Made by a program: the position numbers and the translations under genes. From the IMG/VR virus record IMGVR_UViG_2872198387_000003: a DNA stretch of 30,004 bases. One strand, given 5' to 3'. The notes beneath the pieces were generated by a model. It worked only from the letters and a program-made list of their open reading frames with translations. It searched no databases and had not been told where the DNA came from. Every line of letters begins with the position of its first letter. Position 1 is the stretch's first letter. This stretch comes from a virus. Its lineage: Duplodnaviria > Heunggongvirae > Uroviricota > Caudoviricetes. Shown in pieces: positions 277 to 30,004 of this stretch.

Positions 277-532
277 TTATTGCAGTTGCACAAGAGTCAG
301 TTAGCCCCCAAAGACAGCACCGGTATCAATATAATGCAGGTTGCCAATATCCACGCGATGTCGCAACGGTGTATGACCAAACCAGAAATGATCAGCACCT
401 GTAATTCCCTGCCCTTTTGGGCGTTCACCTAATCGCGAGCGGCTCCACAAGACCTGATGCAAATCAACGTCCTTTTGCCATTCATAAACTGAGGTGTACT
501 GGCAATAGCGGACACTACCATTTGTTCTTTTT

Positions 533-1351
533 TTAAGCAGCCATCTGATGATATTTTTCCCTGAAGGCTGCCGGGGAGATATTCCCCAGACGAGAGTGAC
601 GACGCTGACGATTGTAGAAAATCTCAATGTATTCCCGTATTACTGAGATGGCTTCATCCCGGTTATTAAAACGATAGTGGCTCAGGCTCTCATTTTTCAG
701 CGTTCCCCAGAAGCTTTCCATCGGAGCGTTGTCGTAACAGTTACCTTTACGCGACATTGATGTTTTCAGACCAGACTGCTCCTGTATGACCCGGTAATCG
801 TATGCGCAGTACTGTGAACCTCGATCAGAGTGGTGGATTAGCCCGGCAGGTGGGCGCTGGCTCCTGAGCGCCATAAACAGGGCTTTACCTGTCAGCTCTT
901 TTGTCATGCGCTCTCCCATGGCGTAGCCGACAATTTCGCACGTATAAACATCTTTGATGCCAGCGAGGTACAACCATCCCTCCTGTGTGGCAACATACGT
1001 CAGGTCCGCCACCCAGACCTGATTTGGTGCTGTAGGAGCGAACGTCTGGTTCAGCAGATTTGGCGCAACTGGCAGATTGTGGTTCGGGTTCGTAGTCGCT
1101 CTGAACTTGCGTTTCTGCTTACAGCGTAGCCTTAGCTCCTTACGAAGACGTGCCAGTCGGTCACGACCAACGATGATGCCATTCTCTGCCAGCTCCGTCT
1201 GGAGCCGCCGGGTTCCATATGTTTCGCGAGTGCGGATATGTGCCACCTTAATCTCCAGTTTTAGCCGCTCATCACTTTGTTTTCTGTCTGAGGGTTCATG
1301 CTGTACCCAGTTGTAATAACCGCTCCTGGATACACCAAATACCTGACACAT
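533..1351 (-). CDS. IS600 OrfB (DDE integrase-type transposase)
   Basis: 272-aa ORF with an IS3-family DDE core (...WVADLTY..., ...HSDRGSQY..., ...DNAPMESFW...). Lies downstream of orfA in the -1 frame. Confidence 0.9.
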   Translation of the reverse strand: MCQVFGVSRSGYYNWVQHEPSDRKQSDERLKLEIKVAHIRTRETYGTRRLQTELAENGIIVGRDRLARLRKELRLRCKQKRKFRATTNPNHNLPVAPNLLNQTFAPTAPNQVWVADLTYVATQEGWLYLAGIKDVYTCEIVGYAMGERMTKELTGKALFMALRSQRPPAGLIHHSDRGSQYCAYDYRVIQEQSGLKTSMSRKGNCYDNAPMESFWGTLKNESLSHYRFNNRDEAISVIREYIEIFYNRQRRHSRLGNISPAAFREKYHQMAA

Positions 1352-1386
1352 CGCTTCAATGGGAAATTGTTGTCGCCATTGTTCGA

Positions 1387-1689
1387 TTAACGCGTATTTT
1401 TCAGCGACTCCTGTGCAAAATACGCTGTTGCTTTTTTTAATATATCTCGCTCAAGGCGAGCTTCATTTAACGCCTTACGCAGTTGCAGAATTTCAGATTC
1501 CAGTTCAGCCACCGTGCGGGAACCAGGAGTACCGAGCCCTTTTCTGGCGGCGGTAACCCATTGTCCTAAAGTGCCTTCAGGAAGAGATAATCGGGAAGCG
1601 CCTTCACTGATCGAAAGTTGATTTTCAAGAACCGTTCTGACAGCTTCGGCTTTGAACTCTTTAGAGTAACGTTGGGTTTTTCTGCTCAT
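1387..1689 (-). CDS. IS600 OrfA (HTH transposase subunit)
   Basis: 100-aa ORF MSRKTQRYSKEFKAEAV..., found identical in all four IS600 copies. SD-like GGAGC upstream. Confidence 0.9.
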   Translation of the reverse strand: MSRKTQRYSKEFKAEAVRTVLENQLSISEGASRLSLPEGTLGQWVTAARKGLGTPGSRTVAELESEILQLRKALNEARLERDILKKATAYFAQESLKNTR

Positions 1690-2805
1690 TATTAGCTCCT
1701 TCTGATGCCATTCTATTTCAGGAAGGAGTGTCCGTTAAACTCAGGCTACCTCAAACATCATCTGGATAATCGGCATGAGCAATAACATGCTTGCCGGTGC
1801 GACTGTGTACTTCAAGAATAAAGGGCAAATGCTGACATTTTTCCAGCGCCGTTTTCGCTTGTTTCTGTTGATTATCTGCCAGCGCAATAAACCAGTCGCC
1901 GCCATTCATCAACCACAAAGACATCTGCTGGAATGCCAGCGCATCCATCGCCATCTGTTCATGATTGCCTCTTACCGCACGAACCCAATGTTGTTCCAGT
2001 AACTGCAGACAACGTAAACTTTGCGGCCCACGATCGATAACGTCTCCCACTGAGATAAGTAAATCTCGCCACGGATCAAAACGACAATGCCATAATTTGC
2101 GGCGCAACTGCTCAAGACAACCGTGTATATCGCCAGAAAGCCAGATATGTCGCCATTGATGACCCGCAATTCTCTGATAAACGGGCGCAGGCTGTTTCAT
2201 CAATATTTTCCTCCCGCGCTAAAGATCACATAATCTTAACAAGAATGTTAAAAAACGCTGGACTCAGACAGTAGAGTGTGTGTTATGGTTGACTATAAAG
2301 TCAGCGAAGGAAATGCTTCTGGCTTTTAACAGATAAAAAGAGACCGAACATGATTCCTGTTTTCGTCAACAAACAATAAAACCCTTTAAAATTAATGCGT
2401 TGAATAAATTTACGTTCATCTTTTAATCCCTGACACGTACCATTGCATATTAATACATTCAACCAGTTACCATTTTTTTCGAGTTTTTTAGAGAAATTTT
2501 CGGGAATATTTCAGGTCAATCCATGCAGACGCAAGCAATTCCTGTATTGAATAATTCCGTAGCAATTATGTAAAATCATCTCCGGCTGATTTTCATTCAA
2601 ACTCGCGCTATCGAACATCCATCAGCCAGCCGTGGCACGTTCTTGCATACGACGTGCTACGGTTTCCTTTACGATTTGGGGTTGCGACTTTACCTCTATT
2701 GATAATGCATTCCGGCAGAACGTTCAAATATGAAGTACGATGTTTAACTAACCGAAAAACAAGAACAATACGGTGCAAGCAAGCTATTCACAGTTAACTG
2801 AAACA

Positions 2806-8021: not shown

Positions 8022-8112
8022 TAGACTGGCCCCCTGAATCTCCAGACAACCAGTATCACTTATTTAAGTGATAGTCTTAATACTAGTTTTTAGACTAGTC
8101 ATTGGAGAACAG

Positions 8113-8478
8113 ATGATTGATGTCTTAGGGCCGGAGAAACGCAGACGGCGTACCACACAGGAAAAGATCGCAATTGTTCAGCAGAGCTTTGAACCGGGGA
8201 TGACGGTCTCCCTCGTTGCCCGGCAACATGGTGTAGCAGCCAGCCAGTTATTTCTCTGGCGTAAGCAATACCAGGAAGGAAGTCTTACTGCTGTGGCCGC
8301 CGGAGAACAGGTTGTTCCTGCCTCTGAACTTGCTGCCGCCATGAAGCAGATTAAAGAACTCCAGCGCCTGCTCGGCAAGAAAACGATGAAAAATGAACTC
8401 CTCAAAGAAGCCGTTGAATATGGACGGGCAAAAAAGTGGATAGCGCACGCGCCCTTATTGCCCGGGGATGGGGAGTAA
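8113..8478 (+). CDS. insC: IS2 OrfA (InsC)
   Basis: 121 aa [26 protein letters not shown]... The ORF-track start at 8068 is an upstream extension. Confidence 0.9.
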
Positions 8479-9341
8479 GCTTAGTCAGCCGTTGTCTCCG
8501 GGTGTCGCGTGCGCAGTTGCACGTCATTCTCAGACGAACCGATGACTGGATGGATGGCCGCCGCAGTCGTCACACTGATGATACGGATGTGCTTCTCCGT
8601 ATACACCATGTTATCGGAGAGCTGCCCACGTATGGTTATCGTCGGGTATGGGCGCTGCTTCGCAGACAGGCAGAACTTGATGGTATGCCTGCGATCAATG
8701 CCAAACGTGTTTACCGGCTCATGCGCCAGAATGCGCTGTTGCTTGAGCGAAAACCTGCTGTACCGCCATCGAAACGGGCACATACAGGCAGAGTGGCCGT
8801 GAAAGAAAGCAATCAGCGATGGTGCTCTGACGGGTTCGAGTTCTGCTGTGATAACGGAGAGAGACTGCGTGTCACGTTCGCGCTGGACTGCTGTGATCGT
8901 GAGGCACTGCACTGGGCGGTGACTACCGGCGGCTTCAACAGTGAAACAGTACAGGACGTCATGCTGGGAGCAGTGGAACGCCGCTTCGGCAACGATCTTC
9001 CGTCGTCTCCAGTGGAGTGGCTGACGGATAATGGTTCATGCTACCGGGCTAATGAAACACGCCAGTTCGCCCGGATGTTGGGACTTGAACCGAAGAACAC
9101 GGCGGTGCGGAGTCCGGAGAGTAACGGAATAGCAGAGAGCTTCGTGAAAACGATAAAGCGTGACTACATCAGTATCATGCCCAAACCAGACGGGTTAACG
9201 GCAGCAAAGAACCTTGCAGAGGCGTTCGAGCATTATAACGAATGGCATCCGCATAGTGCGCTGGGTTATCGCTCGCCACGGGAATATCTGCGGCAGCGGG
9301 CTTGTAATGGGTTAAGTGATAACAGATGTCTGGAAATATAG
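8436..9341 (+). CDS. insD: IS2 OrfB (InsD, DDE transposase)
   Basis: 301-aa ORF overlapping orfA in the -1 frame, with a DDE region ...WCSDGF..., ...LTDNGSCY..., ...SNGIAESF... Confidence 0.9.
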
Positions 9342-9417
9342 GGGCAAATCCAGCTGCTAAGTATTAAATAACTTTCCTGAGATTTCCTTTGTAAGACTGT
9401 TTATTAAGGAGGCTTCC

Positions 9418-10159: not shown

Positions 10160-10258
10160 AAAAAAGAAAGCCTGCACACTGTGCAGGCCTGAATGAAGAA
10201 CCTGGGACATTTATTCATCACTCGCAGTAATTTTAATCTGAGTTGAGGTTAAAAAACA

Positions 10259-11675
10259 ATGAACACCGATAAACAAGTTTACCCACTGTATTACGAAGCA
10301 AAAAATGACAAAGTAAGAAAACGTCTCGGTATTAAAGGCGGTTTTTACTGGGCTGAAGCGAAAAAATTATCCATTGCCATCTCCCGTGGTGCTGTTGCGA
10401 TTGACGATGCAGGCTACGATGAAGATGACTTTAAAAAACCTGTTCGCGTCAATTTGCCCGTTGTTGATGACCTCCCGCCAGAAGGCGTATTTGATACGGA
10501 ATTCTGCAACCGTTACGAAAAAGGCGGGGAAGATGGCATCACAATGGTATTTATCGCATCTTCTCCCTCTGTTCAGGACAAACCGGCCAGCACTGACAAT
10601 ACCAACGTCAACGGCGAAGACATGACAGAAATTGAGGAGAACATGCTCCTGCCAGTTTCCGGTCAGGAACTGCCCATTCGCTGGCTTGCGCAACACGGCA
10701 GCGAAAAACCAGTAACGCACGTTTCACGCGACGAACTCCAGGCATTACACATTGCTCGGGATGAAGAACTACCAGCTGTTACTGCCCTGGCTGTTTCCCA
10801 CAAAACCAGCCTGCTCGATCCGCTGGAAATTCGCGATCTCCACAAACTGGTGCGTGATACTGACAGAGTTTTCCCTAATCCAGGCAATTCAAGCCTGGGG
10901 CTGATGACTGCTTTTTTCGAAGCATACATGGACGCAGACTACACCGATCGCGGTCTGCTGACAAAAGAGTGGATGAAAGGAAATCGTGTTTCACGCATCA
11001 CGCGCACGGCTTCCGGCGCTAATGCTGGCGGCGGGAACCTCACCGATCGCGGCGAAGGTTTCGTTCACGATCTGACGTCACTGGCGCGCGACGTAGCCAC
11101 TGGCGTACTGGCTCGTTCAATGGACGTGGACATTTATAACCTTCATCCGGCACACGCTAAACGTGTCGAGGAAATTATCGCTGAAAATAAACCGCCCTTT
11201 TCTGTTTTCCGCGACAAATTCATCACCATGCCTGGCGGGATGGATTATTCCCGCGCCATCGTGGTTGCGTCAGTGAAAGAAGCACCGATTGGTATCGAGG
11301 TCATCCCCGCTCACGTCACTGAATATCTGAACAAGGTACTGACTGAAACCGATCATGCCAACCCTGATCCGGAAATCGTGGATATTGCCTGCGGTCGCTC
11401 CTCTGCCCCGATGCCGCAACGTGTAACAGAAGAAGGAAAACAGGATGATGAAGAAAAAACGCAGCCATCTGGCGCAATGGCAGATGAACAGGCAACGGCT
11501 GAAACAATGGAACCGGATGCAACTGAACATCATCAGAACACGCAGCCGCTGGATGCTCAGTCACAGGTAAATTCTGTTGATGAGAAATATCAGGAACTAC
11601 GGGCAGAACTCCATGAAGCCCGGAAAAACATTCCGCCCAAAAATCCTGTCGATGCAGACAAATTACTGGCTGCCT
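10259..11675 (+). pseudogene. recE: exodeoxyribonuclease VIII (RecE), N-terminal 470 aa only
   Basis: ...[45 protein letters not shown]...[17 protein letters not shown] matches remembered Rac RecE. The C-terminal nuclease domain and recT are absent. Reading stops in IS600-derived sequence at 11676. Confidence 0.85.
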
Positions 11676-11687: not shown

Positions 11688-11730
11688 TGAGGTGTACTGG
11701 CAATAGCGGACACTACCATTTGTTCTTTTT

Positions 11731-12549
11731 TTAAGCAGCCATCTGATGATATTTTTCCCTGAAGGCTGCCGGGGAGATATTCCCCAGACGAGAGTGACGA
11801 CGCTGACGATTGTAGAAAATCTCAATGTATTCCCGTATTACTGAGGTGGCTTCATCCCGGTTATTAAAACGATAGTGGCTCAGGCTCTCATTTTTCAGCG
11901 TTCCCCAGAAGCTTTCCATCGGAGCGTTGTCGTAACAGTTACCTTTACGCGACATTGATGTTTTCAGACCAGACTGCTCCTGTATGACCCGGTAATCGTA
12001 TGCGCAGTACTGTGAACCTCGATCAGAGTGGTGGATTAGCCCGGCAGGTGGGCGCTGGCTCCTGAGCGCCATAAACAGGGCTTTACCTGTCAGCTCTTTT
12101 GTCATGCGCTCTCCCATGGCGTAGCCGACAATTTCACACGTATAAACATCTTTGATGCCAGCGAGGTACAACCATCCCTCCTGTGTGGCAACATACGTCA
12201 GGTCCGCCACCCAGACCTGATTTGGTGCTGTAGGAGCGAACGTCTGGTTCAGCAGATTTGGCGCAACTGGCAGATTGTGGTTCGGGTTCGTAGTCGCTCT
12301 GAACTTGCGTTTCTGCTTACAGCGTAGCCTCAGCTCCTTACGAAGACGTGCCAGTCGGTCACGACCAACGATGATGCCATTCTCTGCCAGCTCCGTCTGG
12401 AGCCGCCGGGTTCCATATGTTTCGCGAGTGCGGATATGTGCCACCTTAATCTCCAGTTTTAGCCGCTCATCACTTTGTTTTCTGTCTGAGGGTTCATGCT
12501 GTACCCAGTTGTAATAACCGCTCCTGGATACACCAAATACCTGACACAT
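11731..12549 (-). CDS. IS600 OrfB
   Basis: 272-aa ORF with one substitution relative to the other copies (EATSVIREY versus EAISVIREY). Confidence 0.9.
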   Translation of the reverse strand: MCQVFGVSRSGYYNWVQHEPSDRKQSDERLKLEIKVAHIRTRETYGTRRLQTELAENGIIVGRDRLARLRKELRLRCKQKRKFRATTNPNHNLPVAPNLLNQTFAPTAPNQVWVADLTYVATQEGWLYLAGIKDVYTCEIVGYAMGERMTKELTGKALFMALRSQRPPAGLIHHSDRGSQYCAYDYRVIQEQSGLKTSMSRKGNCYDNAPMESFWGTLKNESLSHYRFNNRDEATSVIREYIEIFYNRQRRHSRLGNISPAAFREKYHQMAA

Positions 12550-12584
12550 CGCTTCAATGGGAAATTGTTGTCGCCATTGTTCGA

Positions 12585-12887
12585 TTAACGCGTATTTTTC
12601 AGCGACTCCTGTGCAAAATACGCTGTTGCTTTTTTTAATATATCTCGCTCAAGGCGAGCTTCATTTAACGCCTTACGCAGTTGCAGAATTTCAGATTCCA
12701 GTTCAGCCACCGTGCGGGAACCAGGAGTACCGAGCCCTTTTCTGGCGGCGGTAACCCATTGTCCTAAAGTGCCTTCAGGAAGAGATAATCGGGAAGCGCC
12801 TTCACTGATCGAAAGTTGATTTTCAAGAACCGTTCTGACAGCTTCGGCTTTGAACTCTTTAGAGTAACGTTGGGTTTTTCTGCTCAT
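12585..12887 (-). CDS. IS600 OrfA
   Basis: Identical 100-aa ORF. Confidence 0.9.
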   Translation of the reverse strand: MSRKTQRYSKEFKAEAVRTVLENQLSISEGASRLSLPEGTLGQWVTAARKGLGTPGSRTVAELESEILQLRKALNEARLERDILKKATAYFAQESLKNTR

Positions 12888-12960
12888 TATTAGCTCCTTC
12901 TGATGCCATTCTATTTCAGGAAGGAGTGTCCGTTAAACTCAGGCTACCTCAGTATTCCCT

Positions 12961-16894: not shown

Positions 16895-17543
16895 CTTTCA
16901 AGTGTCCATGTCTGCTATTCGCCTCGCGATACAGCTTTGCGAAGCTTACCGGAATTGAAGCAGTTTATGTGCAAAAATGCAAGAACTTTTTTAAAGCTGC
17001 ATCAACCTTTCCACCAGTTTATCTCTGCGAACAACAAACCAACCATTGGCTCTCGCCAGTTCCAGCCATGACTCAAGGGAAATAACAATATCATCATCCC
17101 GTAACTGAATTGTGGAAACAGTGACACCGCCTCTCTGATAACAGAGAACTCGCGTGTCGTAACTTTTCTGGCATGAAACTGGCGTTGACGGATCCCTTTG
17201 ACTGAAATAGCAGTCTTCCAGTTTTTCGAACACATCCCACGCCTGATCGGTTTCGAGCATTTTGCCGTGGCGTGCTGCGCCTCGTTCTGTCCAGAGGATG
17301 AGGGAGCGGGCTTTGGGTGAAACTGGATTTTGTGAGTAGTTTAAAGCGACCCGCAATTCTTTAAGGTCATTACCAACAACTTTGAAAAAGTGTTTCCCTT
17401 CAACGAAGCGTACTTTGTTCTCATGATGATTCTGGCGAATACGCACCGGCTCAGTGCCGTAAAGCTGCGCCAAAAGTTCGGTGGTAATAACAGGAATCTG
17501 TGAGGTGTACTGGCAATAGCGGACACTACCATTTGTTCTTTTT

Positions 17544-18362
17544 TTAAGCAGCCATCTGATGATATTTTTCCCTGAAGGCTGCCGGGGAGATATTCCCCAG
17601 ACGAGAGTGACGACGCTGACGATTGTAGAAAATCTCAATGTATTCCCGTATTACTGAGATGGCTTCATCCCGGTTATTAAAACGATAGTGGCTCAGGCTC
17701 TCATTTTTCAGCGTTCCCCAGAAGCTTTCCATCGGAGCGTTGTCGTAACAGTTACCTTTACGCGACATTGATGTTTTCAGACCAGACTGCTCCTGTATGA
17801 CCCGGTAATCGTATGCGCAGTACTGTGAACCTCGATCAGAGTGGTGGATTAGCCCGGCAGGTGGGCGCTGGCTCCTGAGCGCCATAAACAGGGCTTTACC
17901 TGTCAGCTCTTTTGTCATGCGCTCTCCCATGGCGTAGCCGACAATTTCACACGTATAAACATCTTTGATGCCAGCGAGGTACAACCATCCCTCCTGTGTG
18001 GCAACATACGTCAGGTCCGCCACCCAGACCTGATTTGGTGCTGTAGGAGCGAACGTCTGGTTCAGCAGATTTGGCGCAACTGGCAGATTGTGGTTCGGGT
18101 TCGTAGTCGCTCTGAACTTGCGTTTCTGCTTACAGCGTAGCCTTAGCTCCTTACGAAGACGTGCCAGTCGGTCACGACCAACGATGATGCCATTCTCTGC
18201 CAGCTCCGTCTGGAGCCGCCGGGTTCCATATGTTTCGCGAGTGCGGATATGTGCCACCTTAATCTCCAGTTTTAGCCGCTCATCACTTTGTTTTCTGTCT
18301 GAGGGTTCATGCTGTACCCAGTTGTAATAACCGCTCCTGGATACACCAAATACCTGACACAT
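17544..18362 (-). CDS. IS600 OrfB
   Basis: Identical 272-aa ORF. Confidence 0.9.
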   Translation of the reverse strand: MCQVFGVSRSGYYNWVQHEPSDRKQSDERLKLEIKVAHIRTRETYGTRRLQTELAENGIIVGRDRLARLRKELRLRCKQKRKFRATTNPNHNLPVAPNLLNQTFAPTAPNQVWVADLTYVATQEGWLYLAGIKDVYTCEIVGYAMGERMTKELTGKALFMALRSQRPPAGLIHHSDRGSQYCAYDYRVIQEQSGLKTSMSRKGNCYDNAPMESFWGTLKNESLSHYRFNNRDEAISVIREYIEIFYNRQRRHSRLGNISPAAFREKYHQMAA

Positions 18363-18397
18363 CGCTTCAATGGGAAATTGTTGTCGCCATTGTTCGA

Positions 18398-18700
18398 TTA
18401 ACGCGTATTTTTCAGCGACTCCTGTGCAAAATACGCTGTTGCTTTTTTTAATATATCTCGCTCAAGGCGAGCTTCATTTAACGCCTTACGCAGTTGCAGA
18501 ATTTCAGATTCCAGTTCAGCCACCGTGCGGGAACCAGGAGTACCGAGCCCTTTTCTGGCGGCGGTAACCCATTGTCCTAAAGTGCCTTCAGGAAGAGATA
18601 ATCGGGAAGCGCCTTCACTGATCGAAAGTTGATTTTCAAGAACCGTTCTGACAGCTTCGGCTTTGAACTCTTTAGAGTAACGTTGGGTTTTTCTGCTCAT
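18398..18700 (-). CDS. IS600 OrfA
   Basis: Identical 100-aa ORF. Confidence 0.9.
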   Translation of the reverse strand: MSRKTQRYSKEFKAEAVRTVLENQLSISEGASRLSLPEGTLGQWVTAARKGLGTPGSRTVAELESEILQLRKALNEARLERDILKKATAYFAQESLKNTR

Positions 18701-18842
18701 TATTAGCTCCTTCTGATGCCATTCTATTTCAGGAAGGAGTGTCCGTTAAACTCAGGCTACCTCACTGGTTATGGGTGATCGGGGAGAGAGTTTCAACAGA
18801 GATTTGAGTGGTCATAACGATAACTCCGTACATTTGGAAATT

Positions 18843-25030: not shown

Positions 25031-25774
25031 CTACTTAACAACCCTCGAATGGCTAACATTCGGACGCCAGCTCTCCCAGTTAAAATTAACCCAGCGCCCG
25101 CCGTTCATGACCATGCGATCCATCACCCGCTCGCCGAGAAGTGTATTCATCGCTGCATGGTTAATATTTGTCAGCATCCCCACACCGCGTAACGATGCCG
25201 TCCGGCGATCAACAATCTGGTTCAGTACCACCTGCTCGTTTTTCGTATCCCGCTGCATGCCAATTTCATCCAGGACCAGCAGGTCAACACCACAAAGCTC
25301 CTGTAAAAATTTTTCACCGGATTTGCCGTTGTCGTAGCTCTCATGCAACACGCTCATGACATCGGACACGGTGACGATAATCACGCTACGCCCCTTCGCC
25401 ATCAGCCGGTTGCCAATCGCGGCTGCAAGATGATTTTTTCCGGTGCCGGGCTTACCGCTGAACACAAAATTCGTACAGCCTGTCATCAGTTCGTCAGCTA
25501 TGGATTTCGCCTGACTCAGTGCATGTCGCTGACCGTCGTTCTGCGCCCGGTAATTCGCAAACGAACACTTCCGGTGCAACGGCTGGATGCCGGAGCGGAG
25601 GATTTTTTCCACCCGCAACTGACGATTCAGGCGGTTGATCTCCTCGCAACGTTTCTGGCCTTCAGCAAGTTGCCACTCGCGCCACTCCGCAACCGTTCTG
25701 AATGGGGCGGTTACATGTGGTGGGGTCAGTCTGCGGATACGCTCCAGAACGCCTCCTGTCGCAATATTTTTCAT
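25031..25774 (-). CDS. DnaC-like replicative helicase loader (YdaV-like AAA+ ATPase)
   Basis: 247 aa with Walker A GKPGTGKNHLA and Walker B DLLVLDEIG. Confidence 0.85.
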   Translation of the reverse strand: MKNIATGGVLERIRRLTPPHVTAPFRTVAEWREWQLAEGQKRCEEINRLNRQLRVEKILRSGIQPLHRKCSFANYRAQNDGQRHALSQAKSIADELMTGCTNFVFSGKPGTGKNHLAAAIGNRLMAKGRSVIIVTVSDVMSVLHESYDNGKSGEKFLQELCGVDLLVLDEIGMQRDTKNEQVVLNQIVDRRTASLRGVGMLTNINHAAMNTLLGERVMDRMVMNGGRWVNFNWESWRPNVSHSRVVK

Positions 25775-26612
25775 GGTCTGTTACCCCCTGAAGCCTAGCG
25801 GGATCGCACTGTCCGGCAACGAGACGGTGTTAACCTGTCGGAGCAACGTCTCAGGCCGAACACCTTTCGGCGCGAACAGACCCTGGTATTCATTGGCGAT
25901 GCTGTGTCGAATCACCTGCTCAGGTGTAAAACCCTGCTGACGGAATTTTTCCAGTTCCCGTATCGCCCCGTTAGCGCCCAGCTCCGTTCGAATCGGTTTT
26001 CGCAATGCCTGCCTGAACTGGACCCACTCATGCCAGAGTGTTTCTGGCAACCAGTCGGGCAGATCAACTGACAACGGGTCAAATTTTTTCTGGCGAACAG
26101 CCCCACCGATAACCAGAATTCCCTGCTCGGTGTGCCTTGCGATATCACTGCGCCGCAAGACACATATCCCGGTTTCAACAGCACCGATTTTGAGCAGTGA
26201 TTTCTGTCGCGGAGAATTTCGGTCAAGCTCGATCCCACACCGGACACCGTTCCTGTCAGTCACGACGATATCAATCCGCCCTCCGCAACCGTCACCACGC
26301 TCTGGCACCGGATACTCACGACAGACATCCAGGCCAGCAGCCTGCAACGCAACCACCGCAGAATTACAAAATTCCGCTGCAGTACCGCCAGATAATCTCC
26401 CCTCAAGCACTCCAGCCACAAAATCCCGAAACTCCCTTCCGGAAGGGAAGGGTTTGGGATGGGTTAGATCTGTTTTTAGATCTTTATCTGTATCTTTATT
26501 AGTTGCCTTTGTGTTGGCATCTAGACTGGCCCCCTGAATCTCCAGACAACCAGTATCACTTATTTAAGTGATAGTCTTAATACTAGTTTTTAGACTAGTC
26601 ATTGGAGAACAG

Positions 26613-26978
26613 ATGATTGATGTCTTAGGACCGGAGAAACGCAGACGGCGTACCACACAGGAAAAGATCGCAATTGTTCAGCAGAGCTTTGAACCGGGGA
26701 TGACGGTCTCCCTCGTTGCCCGGCAACATGGTGTAGCAGCCAGCCAGTTATTTCTCTGGCGTAAGCAATACCAGGAAGGAAGTCTTACTGCTGTGGCCGC
26801 CGGAGAACAGGTTGTTCCTGCCTCTGAACTTGCTGCCGCCATGAAGCAGATTAAAGAACTCCAGCGCCTGCTCGGCAAGAAAACGATGAAAAATGAACTC
26901 CTCAAAGAAGCCGTTGAATATGGACGGGCAAAAAAGTGGATAGCGCACGCGCCCTTATTGCCCGGGGATGGGGAGTAA
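26613..26978 (+). CDS. insC: IS2 OrfA (InsC)
   Basis: Same 121-aa product as copy 1. Confidence 0.9.
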
Positions 26979-27841
26979 GCTTAGTCAGCCGTTGTCTCCG
27001 GGTGTCGCGTGCGCAGTTGCACGTCATTCTCAGACGAACCGATGACTGGATGGATGGCCGCCGCAGTCGTCACACTGATGATACGGATGTGCTTCTCCGT
27101 ATACACCATGTTATCGGAGAGCTGCCCACGTATGGTTATCGTCGGGTATGGGCGCTGCTTCGCAGACAGGCAGAACTTGATGGTATGCCTGCGATCAATG
27201 CCAAACGTGTTTACCGGCTCATGCGCCAGAATGCGCTGTTGCTTGAGCGAAAACCTGCTGTACCGCCATCGAAACGGGCACATACAGGCAGAGTGGCCGT
27301 GAAAGAAAGCAATCAGCGATGGTGCTCTGACGGGTTCGAGTTCTGCTGTGATAACGGAGAGAGACTGCGTGTCACGTTCGCGCTGGACTGCTGTGATCGT
27401 GAGGCACTGCACTGGGCGGTGACTACCGGCGGCTTCAACAGTGAAACAGTACAGGACGTCATGCTGGGAGCAGTGGAACGCCGCTTCGGCAACGATCTTC
27501 CGTCGTCTCCAGTGGAGTGGCTGACGGATAATGGTTCATGCTACCGGGCTAATGAAACACGCCAGTTCGCCCGGATGTTGGGACTTGAACCGAAGAACAC
27601 GGCGGTGCGGAGTCCGGAGAGTAACGGAATAGCAGAGAGCTTCGTGAAAACGATAAAGCGTGACTACATCAGTATCATGCCCAAACCAGACGGGTTAACG
27701 GCAGCAAAGAACCTTGCAGAGGCGTTCGAGCATTATAACGAATGGCATCCGCATAGTGCGCTGGGTTATCGCTCGCCACGGGAATATCTGCGGCAGCGGG
27801 CTTGTAATGGGTTAAGTGATAACAGATGTCTGGAAATATAG
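26936..27841 (+). CDS. insD: IS2 OrfB (InsD)
   Basis: Same 301-aa ORF as copy 1. Confidence 0.9.
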
Positions 27842-27858
27842 GGGCAAATCCAGCATCA

Positions 27859-27961
27859 TGTTCGAACACCACTCCAACATCTGTTTGAACACCTGTTAAA
27901 TTTCTCTCTTGTTTTGTTTGAACATCTGCTTCCTTTCTGCTTCTTCTGGCCTGAACAGATG
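27859..27961. repeat. iteron-like repeats inside the initiator gene (candidate ori)
   Basis: TGTTCGAACA (27859), TGTTTGAACA (27882) and TGTTTGAACA (27915), plus the half-site TGAACAGATG (27952). AACA(T/C)CTG extensions recur. Spacing is 23-33 bp, and each core is a near-perfect dyad. Confidence 0.5.
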
Positions 27962-28368
27962 CTTTTCCTGCGGCTGATTTTTTGGTTAATTTTTCTCTGA
28001 CAGATGCCAGATCTTCCTCAATCCGAAGATGCATCCATTCGTCGCCGTTATCACAAAAAAACTCCCGCAAGGATGGTTCAACATCAACCCATCGCTCGTT
28101 AGTCAGACGGGCAATTTTTGCCAACCTGTTTTTGGGTATTGGCTTTCCTGTTTGCCAGTAATTGAACATCAGCAACAAATACGCGCCGTGCTCCTCTGCT
28201 GACAAATGCATGGTGTCAGCCAGGTAATCAGCTATGTACAGTTGCATGTATGGTAATGCGGCCATAATTGCCCCGTATGATGCTACCCGGTTGCTTAGAA
28301 TAAGTGAGGTAGCCTGAGTTTAACGGACACTCCTTCCTGAAATAGAATGGCATCAGAAGGAGCTAATA

Positions 28369-28671
28369 ATGAGCAGAAAAACCCAACGTTACTCTAAAGA
28401 GTTCAAAGCCGAAGCTGTCAGAACGGTTCTTGAAAATCAACTTTCGATCAGTGAAGGCGCTTCCCGATTATCCCTTCCTGAAGGCACTTTAGGACAATGG
28501 GTTACCGCCGCCAGAAAAGGGCTCGGTACTCCTGGTTCCCGCACGGTGGCTGAACTGGAATCTGAAATTCTGCAACTGCGTAAGGCGTTAAATGAAGCTC
28601 GCCTTGAGCGAGATATATTAAAAAAAGCAACAGCGTATTTTGCACAGGAGTCGCTGAAAAATACGCGTTAA
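28369..28671 (+). CDS. IS600 OrfA
   Basis: Identical 100-aa product, with synonymous differences at the DNA level. Confidence 0.9.
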   Translation: MSRKTQRYSKEFKAEAVRTVLENQLSISEGASRLSLPEGTLGQWVTAARKGLGTPGSRTVAELESEILQLRKALNEARLERDILKKATAYFAQESLKNTR

Positions 28672-28706
28672 TCGAACAATGGCGACAACAATTTCCTATT
28701 GAAGCG

Positions 28707-29525
28707 ATGTGTCAGGTATTTGGTGTATCCAGGAGCGGTTATTACAACTGGGTACAGCATGAACCCTCAGACAGAAAACAAAGTGATGAGCGGCTAAAAC
28801 TGGAGATTAAGGTGGCACATATCCGCACTCGCGAAACATATGGAACCCGGCGGCTCCAGACGGAGCTGGCAGAGAATGGCATCATCGTTGGTCGTGACCG
28901 ACTGGCACGTCTTCGTAAGGAGCTGAGGCTACGCTGTAAGCAGAAACGCAAGTTCAGAGCGACTACGAACCCGAACCACAATCTGCCAGTTGCGCCAAAT
29001 CTGCTGAACCAGACGTTCGCTCCTACAGCACCAAATCAGGTCTGGGTGGCGGACCTGACGTATGTTGCCACACAGGAGGGATGGTTGTACCTCGCTGGCA
29101 TCAAAGATGTTTATACGTGTGAAATTGTCGGCTACGCCATGGGAGAGCGCATGACAAAAGAGCTGACAGGTAAAGCCCTGTTTATGGCGCTCAGGAGCCA
29201 GCGCCCACCTGCCGGGCTAATCCACCACTCTGATCGAGGTTCACAGTACTGCGCATACGATTACCGGGTCATACAGGAGCAGTCTGGTCTGAAAACATCA
29301 ATGTCGCGTAAAGGTAACTGTTACGACAACGCTCCGATGGAAAGCTTCTGGGGAACGCTGAAAAATGAGAGCCTGAGCCACTATCGTTTTAATAACCGGG
29401 ATGAAGCCATCTCAGTAATACGGGAATACATTGAGATTTTCTACAATCGTCAGCGTCGTCACTCTCGTCTGGGGAATATCTCCCCGGCAGCCTTCAGGGA
29501 AAAATATCATCAGATGGCTGCTTAA
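28707..29525 (+). CDS. IS600 OrfB
   Basis: Identical 272-aa ORF. Confidence 0.9.
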   Translation: MCQVFGVSRSGYYNWVQHEPSDRKQSDERLKLEIKVAHIRTRETYGTRRLQTELAENGIIVGRDRLARLRKELRLRCKQKRKFRATTNPNHNLPVAPNLLNQTFAPTAPNQVWVADLTYVATQEGWLYLAGIKDVYTCEIVGYAMGERMTKELTGKALFMALRSQRPPAGLIHHSDRGSQYCAYDYRVIQEQSGLKTSMSRKGNCYDNAPMESFWGTLKNESLSHYRFNNRDEAISVIREYIEIFYNRQRRHSRLGNISPAAFREKYHQMAA

Positions 29526-29568
29526 AAAAAGAACAAATGGTAGTGTCCGCTATTGCCAGTACACCTCA

Positions 29569-30004
29569 GGACGCCTGCATCAAAACGTTCAGAAACGACA
29601 TCGGTCAAACCATAATCAATGGTAAGCTGAATATCAATTTCAGGATGCGATTTCAGGAATGTGCGCATGGCTGGTAACAATATCGTTTTTGCTGCATGTT
29701 CTACAGTAGTAATACGTATTGTCCCGGATGGGCGGTTCTGCAGATCGCTCAGGGATGTCAGGGCAGAATCTATGTCATGCAATATAGGGCCAAGAACAGA
29801 CAAAAGATGCTCGCCCGCTTCAGTGGGTACAACGCTGCGCGTGGTTCGCGTCAGAAGCCGCAATCCCAATCGTTCTTCTATACGGCGCACTATCTGGCTT
29901 AAAGCTGACTGCACCATGCTCAGGCGGGCTGCTGCGCGAGTGAAGCTACGCTCCTCTGCAACGACGACAAACGCCATCAGATCAGCGATTTCTTCACGCT
30001 TCAT
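29569..30004 (-). pseudogene. LysR-family transcriptional regulator, truncated by IS600
   Basis: MKREEIADLMAFVVVAEERSFTRAAARLSMVQSALSQIVRRIEERLGLRLLTRTTRSV... has an HTH followed by the start of the substrate-binding domain. After ...SERFDAGV the frame runs into IS600. The ATG is at the window edge. Confidence 0.8.

Follow-up and report, generated by a model that had tools for sequence, protein, structure and literature searches.

A candidate lambda-style origin within the linker of a YdaU-type initiator gene, interrupted by IS2 in a Rac-like prophage remnant

Origins inside initiator genes and the Rac prophage

Gram-positive phages offer examples in their replisome organiser genes (SPP1 gene 38 with oriL, lactococcal rep): the N-terminal domain of the product binds repeats within its own gene, beside an AT-rich region. 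A palindrome beyond the AT-rich region also forms part of ori-lambda, and oriJ, the origin of the Rac prophage, has been known genetically for decades. Proteins of the DUF1376 family, to which the Rac product YdaU is related, are common in the prophages of Proteobacteria, and the Pfam label is still that of a domain of unknown function. The lambda origin lies within gene O and consists of several dyad-symmetric initiator sites followed by an A+T-rich region of ~40 bp (PMC5043065). Iteron plasmid origins (RK2, P1, pSC101, R6K) likewise set phased sites beside an A+T-rich element, some with G+C-rich flanks (PMC5043065). Rac itself is reported to have an active oriJ (PMC3945230; also Potrykus et al, 2000, as cited in PMC11014345). 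The MG1655 record NC_000913 carries no oriJ feature, and no sequence-level definition of oriJ was found in the literature searched; the only coordinates found under that name are those of primers labelled 'oriJ', which their authors describe as merely framing it (De Paepe, 2014).

The locus described here is an IS2-split ydaU-type gene in a Rac-like prophage remnant of a Shigella-type genome, contained in a window of 30,004 nt, which is the whole stretch of DNA analysed. We propose that it is probably the vegetative origin, in the style of lambda, of a Rac-like lambdoid prophage, situated in the linker of the initiator gene and disabled in this copy. The analysis established the sequence anatomy, its conservation, selection at the DNA level, a predicted fold and the gene context. 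The gene contains at least three dyad-symmetric sites followed by an A+T-rich region, with a loader/helicase gene downstream and selection on the DNA, and the lambda ori-in-O layout invoked by the first-pass annotation was supported by all the computational tests that were run. As in lambda, the putative origin would lie inside the initiator gene, flanked by the part that binds DNA and the part that interacts with the loader; dyad sites precede the A+T-rich region along the direction of transcription, the next gene is a helicase loader, and the operon is under the prophage repressor. There are differences as well. The N-terminal domain is DUF1376 rather than that of lambda O and only the C-terminal 80-90 aa match 'O-like' PHROGs, so that the protein, whose N-domain matches DUF1376 alone in Pfam, falls outside the lambda O family, although it would work in the manner of lambda O. 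The sites are of 10-14 bp as opposed to 19 bp in lambda and their spacing is uneven (33, 33, 12, 11), the A-rich element is a short-period tandem repeat, and the loader of this lineage is DnaC-like and not lambda P, although P-like loaders occur in some homologues. With iteron plasmid origins the candidate shares helically phased sites adjoining an A+T-rich element, but it does not belong to that class, which is defined by direct repeats outside the rep gene and by DnaA boxes: its repeats are in-gene dyads, and consensus scans of the repaired region for DnaA boxes and IHF sites gave no match. The Gram-positive replisome organisers belong to another Pfam family and other hosts, and the likeness to the SPP1 and lactococcal phages is one of description. 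In K-12 Rac, the ydaU linker is nearly identical to that of the window across both iterons and A-rich tract; past the tract, the window gene differs by an extra domain of ~113 aa and another GC dyad.

The interrupted gene and its repeat array

The genes and insertions concerned are the following.

25031 to 25774, minus strand: ydaV-type gene for a DnaC-like helicase loader, 6 nt downstream of the initiator gene
25781 to 26521, minus strand: 3' part of the initiator gene (aa 137-382), with the inserted domain and the O-like C-terminal domain
26517 to 26521 and 27853 to 27857: 5-bp target duplication of IS2, GCATC
26522 to 27852, plus strand: IS2, 1331 bp, with terminal inverted repeats
27853 to 28265, minus strand: 5' part of the initiator gene (gene nt 1-413, aa 1-137), with DUF1376 and the start of the linker
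28307 to 29569, plus strand: IS600-like element of the IS3 family, at whose edge (~28306) the alignment with alleles L001 and L002 breaks

The first-pass annotation had recognised IS2 and its GCATC duplication, and the exact ends of the element are now placed at 26522 and 27852; a second copy, 99.9% identical, lies at 8022-9352. Deletion of IS2 in silico, which had been suggested as a check, restores an in-frame, minus-strand ydaU-type ORF of 382 aa. An uninterrupted version of this ORF exists in E. coli, where strain FDAARGOS_944 has the intact ydaS/T-ydaU-ydaV region at 5011369-5013995 of NZ_CP065613, and the uninterrupted allele L001 is colinear across the insertion site with a 5-bp overlap. 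The element was thought to fall exactly between the repeats and the AT-rich part, and this has to be corrected: it inserted after gene nt 413, 6 nt past the end of the last dyad (R4 below), inside the tail of the site array, as the family alignment shows two more conserved elements of the CAAC type, CCAACA and GCAACTAAT, past the insertion towards the A-rich tract. The suspected loss of both the protein and the putative origin holds, since IS2 truncates the protein after residue 137 and puts 1.3 kb between the main site array and the A-rich tract. The IS600-like element, present in four copies in the window (99.7-100% identical), is a second lesion: it has replaced the sequence upstream of gene nt -42, and the promoter and the ydaS/ydaT/racR region are therefore absent. 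Between them, the two insertions leave the replicon dead in this window.

DUF1376 is the only Pfam match of the initiator (aa 5-87, window 28005-28253) and, at 87.7 bits against a cut-off of 30.1, exceeds the Pfam gathering score, which places the protein in the YdaU/DUF1376 family of phage replication initiators. It also matches phrog_6451 (E 6e-115), and RefSeq labels the uninterrupted allele 'YdaU family protein' or 'phage replication initiator YdaU family protein'. The N-terminal domain models as a predicted winged helix; Foldseek matches of the model to winged-helix proteins were not significant (best E 0.026), and a comparison of recognition-helix residues with iteron type among the homologues yielded no simple rule of co-variation. 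At the other end, aa 279-356 (window 25862-26095) form an O-like domain matching phrog_678, 'replication initiation O-like' (E 6e-23), and phrog_2509. The inserted domain (aa 164-276, window 26102-26440) matches phrog_1347, of unassigned function, and nothing by sequence in Pfam, NCBIfam or PDB; it gives the bare impression of a PD-(D/E)xK-like motif (RIDIVVTD...GIELD...K). The product of the loader gene matches Pfam IstB_IS21 and Bac_DnaA, NCBIfam NF009043 and phrog_50, with similarity to DnaC (NF005931), and in homologues the next gene is DnaC-like, of the lambda P family, or DnaB. To judge from this gene order, the initiator gene holds the place that lambdoid replication modules reserve for 'O'.

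Repeats and A-rich tract alike fall within the linker that separates DUF1376 from the O-like domain. They are listed below, together with a cluster further upstream, the repeat units being given as read on the coding (minus) strand.

28068 to 28100, minus strand: upstream iteron-like cluster AACGAGCGATGGGTTGATGTTGAACCATCCTTG, containing GATGTTGAAC, in the segment coding for the recognition helix
27948 to 27961, minus strand: weak repeat R1, CATCTGTTCAGGCC, containing the half-site TGAACA (27952-27957)
27915 to 27928, minus strand: iteron R2, CAGATGTTCAAACA, core TGTTCAAACA
27882 to 27895, minus strand: iteron R3, CAGGTGTTCAAACA, 33 nt after R2
27871 to 27884, minus strand: weak repeat R3b, ACAGATGTTGGAGT, 12 nt after R3
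27859 to 27872, minus strand: iteron R4, GTGGTGTTCGAACA, a perfect 10-bp dyad, 11 nt after R3b
26460 to 26516, minus strand: the two CAAC-type elements, then the A-rich tract, CAACACAAAGGCAACTAATAAAGATACAGATAAAGATCTAAAAACAGATCTAACCCA, 57 nt, gene nt 414-470
26433 to 26448: perfect GC-rich palindrome TCCCTTCCGGAAGGGA, 16 bp, immediately after the A-rich tract

The three copies of TGTT(C/T)GAACA that had been noticed at 27859, 27882 and 27915 are confirmed and occur nowhere else in the 30 kb, against 0.24 copies expected from shuffles, none of which (0/100) matched the observed count. A repeat search recovers the same three dyads as a 12-nt family, TGTTYGAACAYC. The fourth half-site and the recurring AACA(T/C)CTG extensions are equally real. 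With the two weaker copies, the exact dyads make up an array over gene nt 305-407 whose spacings (33, 33, 12 and 11 nt) approximate whole helical turns, and R1 is kept in K-12 Rac, in phage Rac-SA53 and in Citrobacter. The upstream cluster is weaker than the main array and coincides with a second peak of synonymous identity (0.73-0.84 vs 0.44 expected, 20 homologues); the family DNA there reads AACGACCGTTGG..GACGTTGAA...TCGTTGAAC, with motif matches at gene nt 184/195 in many homologues. For this gene alone, the largest 9-mer family (at most one mismatch) was equalled in 7/200 and 0/60 synonymous-codon shuffles, a modest result from a statistic that saturates at 3-4 copies and is insensitive; it was replaced by positional motif and synonymous-site tests. 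The single-gene repeat test being only modest, the weight of evidence is in the comparative data.

The A-rich tract has the form of a degenerate (GATNNA)5 and contains two GATC sites, with A making up 57% of the coding strand. No 40-mer of the repaired ydaU-ydaV unit is lower in GC than positions 26465-26504 (0.23), directly downstream of the array. The short direct repeats described on this side are present, TAGATCT having its only two copies in the window at 26465 and 26477, 12 nt apart; their total count is at chance level, their adjacency is not. The tract is positionally homologous to the (GATACA)n or other A-rich tracts of 35+ homologues, and we propose it as the unwinding element. The palindrome next to it was read at first as 14 bp (26434-26447); it is present, with a true length of 16 bp, and may provide the GC flank of that element. 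A dyad with a stem of at least 6 stands at the equivalent place in 11/37 homologues vs 2.3 expected, its counterparts being CCCCCCCGGGGG in Rac and GCGCGCGTGCGCG in Rac-SA53, a viable phage that retains the array, the tract and a GC dyad.

Selection on the DNA beyond the encoded protein

Lack of conservation of the repeats in homologous initiator genes had been named as a refutation of the origin reading; the outcome is the opposite, the layout being kept in about 35 homologues that have diverged to 42-84% identity and range from Enterobacterales to Azotobacter. At the same position of the gene these carry 3-5 short repeats with a period of ~11 nt, followed by (GATACA)n or by (GAAGA)n/(CAGAA)n/(AGAAA)n. 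GTTSAAC/GTTYRAAC is found 51 times within the 110 nt that lead up to the AT minimum, compared with 6.0 +/- 2.2 in synonymous shuffles. Since the layout is conserved in such distant relatives, it constitutes a sequence-level candidate for the origin of the family.

It could be objected that the repeats are a DNA shadow of a low-complexity protein linker (VQT..VQT, DTDKD), free of any DNA function. In favour of this, the same tripeptide, Val-Gln-Thr, is encoded in R2 and R3, (GATACA)n is read as Asp-Thr in all 23 of the 23 tracts picked by their DNA pattern, and the AF2 model (pLDDT 81) shows residues 80-123 as one long helix and the rest as disordered. Nevertheless, R4 lies in another reading frame and encodes VFEH, and the copies occupy different frames in 16 of the 17 homologous genes that have at least two; moreover, neither 11 nor 5 nt is a multiple of 3, so that repeats of these periods cannot give protein repeats. 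Synonymous-codon identity rises to 0.73-0.99 against a baseline of 0.44, about twice that found elsewhere, exactly where amino-acid identity is lowest. In (DT)n tracts, here defined on the protein sequence, Asp is always GAT (89/89) and Thr always ACA (77/77), even in hosts of 60-65% GC, whereas GAC and non-ACA codons prevail outside the tracts in the same genes. Reading frames, codon use and synonymous identity already largely refute the protein-linker explanation, which we consider very unlikely. Diversity among 27 distinct close Rac-type alleles is alike in the linker (pi 0.015) and the N-domain (0.017), the linker being no more conserved, and the close-allele comparison is consequently without power. 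The diverged sequences demonstrate selection at the array and the tract on the DNA sequence itself, beyond the protein that it encodes.

Constraint of this kind might also be imposed by an RNA element, the dyads folding into hairpins in the ydaU mRNA that control its translation or stability. TGTTCAAACA and TGTTTGAACA are able to pair around a 13-nt loop, and the single strand folds better than shuffles (z -3.1). The consensus fold of 15 homologues, for its part, reaches only -4.45 kcal/mol with a covariation term of -0.44, and the only pairing in it is the self-complementarity of one site; in several lineages (L104, L108, L120) all copies are direct, and hence there is no hairpin partner. With no match to an Rfam family and a weak consensus fold that lacks covariation, the RNA element was rejected as extremely improbable.

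(GATACA)n tracts and the origin of DUF1376-type prophages

The tract that follows the iterons extends beyond the YdaU family. Among 120 loci of IMG/VR with (GATACA)4 or longer, 102 have the tract 300-600 nt into an ORF, where it is read as Asp-Thr, and the ORFs concerned belong mostly to initiator families, among them DUF1376/YdaU, Phage_rep_org_N, DUF6291, and phrog_3926/10469 ('replication initiation / DnaD-like'). In the Phage_rep_org_N genes the same tract lies just as far from the start codon, the 90 nt upstream of the tracts are enriched in short repeats (p 1e-8), and the hosts range from Enterobacterales to Azotobacter and beyond. No mention of (GATACA)n as an origin-type repeat was found in the literature searched. 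We suggest tentatively, as a possibility short of a likelihood, that (GATACA)n is a specific shared origin element, constant after lineage-specific iterons in unrelated initiator families. It has a 3-nt sub-period and a strong strand asymmetry; the initiator or the helicase machinery could recognise it as a single strand or load there, by a logic like that of the trinucleotide repeats in bacterial unwinding elements. It could at the same time be a universal joint for the exchange of specificity modules and loader-interaction modules.

Such a joint leads to another explanation, that the array and tract are under selection as DNA and yet are not an origin, being operator or roadblock sites for the control of its own operon by YdaU, or a conserved joint that favours recombination of the specificity module (N-domain and sites) with exchangeable C-terminal modules, with the origin elsewhere, for instance in or near ydaV. 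Window-type and Rac-type genes diverge exactly past the A-rich tract, the C-terminal modules vary widely (O-like, DnaT-like PF17948, others), and an identical (GATACA)n in several unrelated initiator families is the expected look of a shared recombination joint. Furthermore, the published 'oriJ' primers map inside ydaV, ~0.7 kb downstream of our candidate (De Paepe, 2014). The amplicon that they define, however, has no repeats, no AT dip and no origin-like features, and a recombination joint would not explain why purifying selection acts on iteron-like repeats that are not the same in every lineage, nor why period-5 purine tracts stand in place of (GATACA)n. Initiator sites, then the least stable DNA of the unit, then a GC flank form the canonical layout of an origin, and we regard a non-origin function as unlikely.

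For binding, melting, loader recruitment and origin activity at the proposed in-gene origin, we infer the following course. The winged-helix domain of DUF1376 would bind the helically phased dyads CAGRTGTTCRAACA, probably as dimers, its targets being the three strong and two weak copies at nt 305-407 and perhaps an auxiliary cluster at nt 166-198. The resulting nucleoprotein complex would stress the adjoining A-rich, strand-asymmetric tract, which would melt with the GC-rich dyad as its boundary. The O-like C-terminal domain may then recruit the DnaC-like YdaV loader, by which host DnaB would be placed on the opened DNA. Transcription of ydaS-T-U-V through the site would make the proteins and at the same time aid opening, as in lambda.

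Prophage replicons killed by IS insertions are typical of Shigella, and the one described here, lost to IS2 and an IS600-like insertion, is ordinary debris in its own genome. The finding nonetheless provides a precise candidate for the Rac-type origin: within ydaU, five phased dyads followed by an A-rich tract and a GC dyad. The candidate extends to the whole DUF1376 initiator family. Origins would thereby become annotatable in DUF1376-type prophages, and the odd conservation of the 'linker' seen by annotation pipelines would be explained. The roles of the region in cis, as DNA, and in trans, as protein, would be separable by synonymous recoding. If the broader proposal is upheld, the constant (GATACA)n beside variable iterons in several initiator families could indicate that phage origins share an unwinding or loading element.

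Iterons, A-rich tract and insertions at the initiator gene

Deletion in silico of the IS2 element and one GCATC copy from the ydaU-type initiator gene restores an in-frame 382-aa ORF on the minus strand; an uninterrupted counterpart (99.7% identity) is present in two complete E. coli genomes and also in about ten IMG/VR contigs. In one E. coli genome, FDAARGOS_944, the intact ORF is split by PGAP into two YdaU pseudogene pieces, probably a mis-call. Pfam DUF1376 covers residues 5-87 of the repaired product (E 7e-25), and PHROGs assigns its N-terminal half to a YdaU-type 'primosomal protein' family and residues 279-356 to 'replication initiation O-like'. The downstream neighbour is a DnaC-like loader gene (25031-25774). 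The AlphaFold2 model of residues 1-137, run with a 42-sequence alignment (pLDDT 81), predicts a winged-helix fold with the topology helix, helix, (strand), helix, helix, two-stranded wing and a long helix at 80-123; a Foldseek search with this model returned only MarR-type winged-helix matches, none of them significant. The relevant features of the window are the following.

R1, minus (coding) strand: weak repeat, unit CATCTGTTCAGGCC
R2, minus (coding) strand: strong repeat, unit CAGATGTTCAAACA
R3, minus (coding) strand: strong repeat, unit CAGGTGTTCAAACA
R3b, minus (coding) strand: weak repeat, unit ACAGATGTTGGAGT
R4, minus (coding) strand: strong repeat, unit GTGGTGTTCGAACA
26522-27852: IS2, 1331 bp, with recognisable terminal inverted repeats; a second IS2 copy lies at 8022-9352
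26460-26516: A-rich stretch of 57 nt, on the far side of IS2 from the TGTTYGAACA copies
26433-26448: perfect 16-bp palindrome, TCCCTTCCGGAAGGGA, next after the A-rich stretch
26102-26440, minus strand (6462-6862 in L001, the uninterrupted allele): extra domain formed by aa 164-276 (about 113 aa); it follows the A-rich tract and precedes the O-like C-terminus
489-1751 (minus), 11688-12949 (minus), 17501-18762 (minus) and 28307-29569 (plus): four nearly identical IS600-like (IS3-family) elements

The three TGTTYGAACA dyads reported by the first-pass annotation are present exactly at 27859, 27882 and 27915, and the 30-kb window has no other copy (0.24 expected by shuffling, with none of 100 shuffles reaching three). 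They form a 12-nt family in a repeat search of the window, and the fourth half-site of that annotation is real, corresponding to the weak repeat R1. The repeat cores are spaced start-to-start by 33, 33, 12 and 11 nt, distances that approximate whole numbers of helical turns. No 40-mer in the entire repaired ydaU-ydaV unit has a lower GC than the core of the A-rich stretch (40 nt; GC 0.23, coding strand 57% A), and the stretch holds, 12 nt apart, the window's only two copies of TAGATCT, as had been noted; the palindrome, described as 14 bp at 26434-26447, is indeed perfect but extends to 16 bp. The statistics obtained from the window's gene alone are modest.

IS2, flanked by its GCATC duplication (26517-26521 and 27853-27857), truncates the initiator protein past residue 137 and places 1.3 kb between the A-rich tract and the main array. 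This agrees with the proposal that it inactivates both protein and putative origin. Its insertion was thought to fall exactly between iterons and AT-rich part; the separation stands, but the family alignment identifies two further array elements beyond IS2, CCAACA and GCAACTAAT, the counterparts of the relatives' conserved CAACGG...CCAACTAAT, and puts the insertion inside the array's tail. In addition, the IS600-like copy at 28307 replaced all DNA upstream of the initiator gene, and the promoter and ydaS/ydaT/racR region are therefore absent there. With protein truncated, tract moved off the array and promoter region lost, the replicon in the window is dead. Rac-like prophage pieces are scrambled in the window, a recE-like segment (10229-11675) adjoining an IS copy. 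Over 4.5 kb that take in both IS junctions, the window and Shigella flexneri SFBU1023 are 99.6% identical.

Conservation of the layout and constraint on the DNA

Since close Rac alleles are too alike to inform, diverged homologues were gathered from three Pseudomonas phages and 53 loci (one genome per species; N-domain identity 42-100%), covering Citrobacter, Kluyvera, Enterobacter, Pantoea, Serratia, Rahnella, Klebsiella, Pseudomonas, Propionivibrio, Frateuria, Azotobacter and various MAGs. The repeats are conserved: about 35 diverged homologues carry 3-5 short repeats with a period of about 11 nt at the equivalent gene position (nt ~330-480), most commonly AACGACCGTTCAACG / CGTTGAACG, with GCGAACGCA or CACCTGTTCAACA in some lineages. 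Directly after them comes (GATACA)2-8, in place of which some lineages have (GAAGA)n, (CAGAA)n, (AGAAA)n or AATAAAGATNCAGATAAAGAT; the coding strand of the tract is A-rich or purine-rich in every case, and the tract is the gene's AT minimum even in genes of 57-65% GC. A GC-rich dyad (stem at least 6) lies at most 75 nt past the tract in 11 of 37 genes (2.3 expected), and may be a GC clamp bounding the unwinding element. Such dyads include CCCCCCCGGGGG, CCCCCCACAGGGGGG and AAGCGCGCTCCGCGCTT, among others (window 26433-26448; comparison loci L090 at 474-487, L125, L132, L119, L127 and L128). Array, tract and GC dyad are all kept in Rac-SA53, a viable inducible phage. In a sub-branch from Pseudomonas, Kosakonia and Phytobacter (L112-L115, L118), a T5orf172/MUG113 (GIY-YIG-like) domain is inserted past the DUF1376 domain, and different repeats (CCGTAGTAGCTACGG type) are displaced downstream, with (GATACA)n at about nt 650; both lie behind the insert, which indicates that repeats and tract travel together.

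Several observations indicate that the constraint acts on the DNA. GTTSAAC/GTTYRAAC, a strict motif picked after seeing the data, is found 51 times within the 110 nt that precede the AT minimum of 38 genes, against 6.0 +/- 2.2 (maximum 12) in shuffles preserving each protein and its codon usage; independently of that pick, its positions are concentrated, 47 of 84 matches lying no more than 60 nt from the AT minimum. The copies stand in different reading frames in 16 of the 17 genes with at least two linker copies; in the window's gene, R2 and R3 both give Val-Gln-Thr, whereas R4, in a shifted frame, gives Val-Phe-Glu-His, and repeat periods of 11 and 5 nt could not give protein repeats. In a synonymous test requiring no chosen motif (codon alignment of 20 homologues, sequence pairs sharing the amino acid, per-pair baseline, distant pairs only), same-codon use is 44% in the N-domain and 73-99% over iterons and tract (alignment columns 111-160), where amino-acid identity is lowest (0.27-0.58). 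Within protein-defined (Asp-Thr)n tracts, Asp is always GAT (89/89) and Thr always ACA (77/77), whereas in the remainder of these genes Asp is GAC in 62% and Thr is non-ACA in 83%. A role of this region at the RNA level is unlikely: no Rfam family matches it, the consensus fold of 15 homologues reaches only -4.45 kcal/mol with negligible covariation, and several lineages have every copy in the same orientation, leaving no hairpin partner.

A second peak of synonymous constraint (same-codon identity 0.73-0.84 vs 0.44) covers gene nt 166-198 (window 28068-28100, minus strand), where the winged-helix domain has its putative recognition helix encoded. The family DNA there, AACGACCGTTGG..GACGTTGAA...TCGTTGAAC, is similar to the linker repeats, and the window's copy has GATGTTGAAC. 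This segment may serve as an auxiliary cluster of sites, or be the sequence from which the linker repeats arose. A search for iteron sequences that co-vary with the recognition helix demonstrated none.

A candidate origin in the 'O' slot

On this computational evidence, we consider it likely that the linker array and A-rich tract form a replication origin. By analogy with lambda, the phased dyads would be bound by the winged-helix domain of the initiator, whose complex would open the adjoining A-rich, strand-asymmetric tract; the O-like C-terminus would then pass the DnaC-like loader and DnaB to the opened DNA, with transcription running through the site from a RacR-controlled promoter. The element would work like the lambda ori in gene O, whose layout is summarised in PMC5043065. 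According to that source, A+T-rich DNA opens more readily under supercoiling when its flanks are G+C-rich, which fits the GC-rich dyad past the tract. The N-domain of the ydaU-type initiator is DUF1376, which places the protein outside the lambda O family. In homologues, the gene downstream of the initiator encodes a DnaC/IstB-like protein, a lambda P family protein (PF06992) or DnaB helicase. Lambdoid replication modules are known to use these three types of partner, so the ydaU-type gene occupies the 'O' slot.

Across prophages (P0011, P0066, P0105, P0106; comparison locus L086 2950-4020), one combination of N-domain, iterons and tract occurs with various C-terminal modules, including the DnaT-like ssDNA-binding domain PF17948 (Rac-SA53 'primosomal protein I') and the O-like C-terminus, the breakpoint lying immediately past the A-rich tract. 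K-12 Rac-type ydaU is common with the window's gene through the end of this tract and divergent beyond, and K-12 YdaU is devoid of the extra domain. The latter matches phrog_1347 (unknown function) and had no match in Pfam, NCBIfam or PDB sequences; its motif RIDIVVTD..GIELD..K may be PD-(D/E)xK-like.

The element is probably the same as Rac oriJ, since the K-12 sequence is nearly identical. No sequence-level definition of oriJ was found in the literature searched, and the MG1655 record holds no such feature. The sole primer pair found labelled oriJ, described as 'framing oriJ' by De Paepe et al. (2014), yields a 155-bp amplicon in E. coli K-12 ydaV (L087, the K-12 locus, 8241-8395). It comes from around the part of ydaV that codes for Walker A, some 0.7 kb further downstream than the iterons and A-rich region, and contains no origin-like features.

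(GATACA)n across initiator families

An exact IMG/VR scan for (GATACA)n with n of at least 4 gave at least 120 loci (L141-L260); 102 of the 120 listed have the tract inside an ORF, 300-600 nt from its start, where it encodes Asp-Thr. It is not restricted to DUF1376 genes, the ORF N-termini coming from several initiator families: DUF1376 (14), Phage_rep_org_N (8) and DUF6291 (5) by Pfam, and phrog_3926 'replication initiation protein' (53), phrog_10469 'DnaD-like helicase loader' (47) and 'replisome organizer' families by PHROGs. All 30 loci inspected carry 3-6 lineage-specific short repeats in the 60-90 nt preceding (GATACA)n, the last abutting the tract, and short repeats are significantly enriched ahead of it across 105 loci relative to flanking controls (p 1e-8 and 2e-11). 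The window's 26465-26504 is a degenerate copy of this tract. No published mention of (GATACA)n in the context of initiator genes was found in the literature searched. The overall layout is one of variable iterons and a constant hexamer tract, and (GATACA)n may be a specific recognition element, a shared joint for recombination, or simply a favoured unwinding sequence that slippage keeps uniform.
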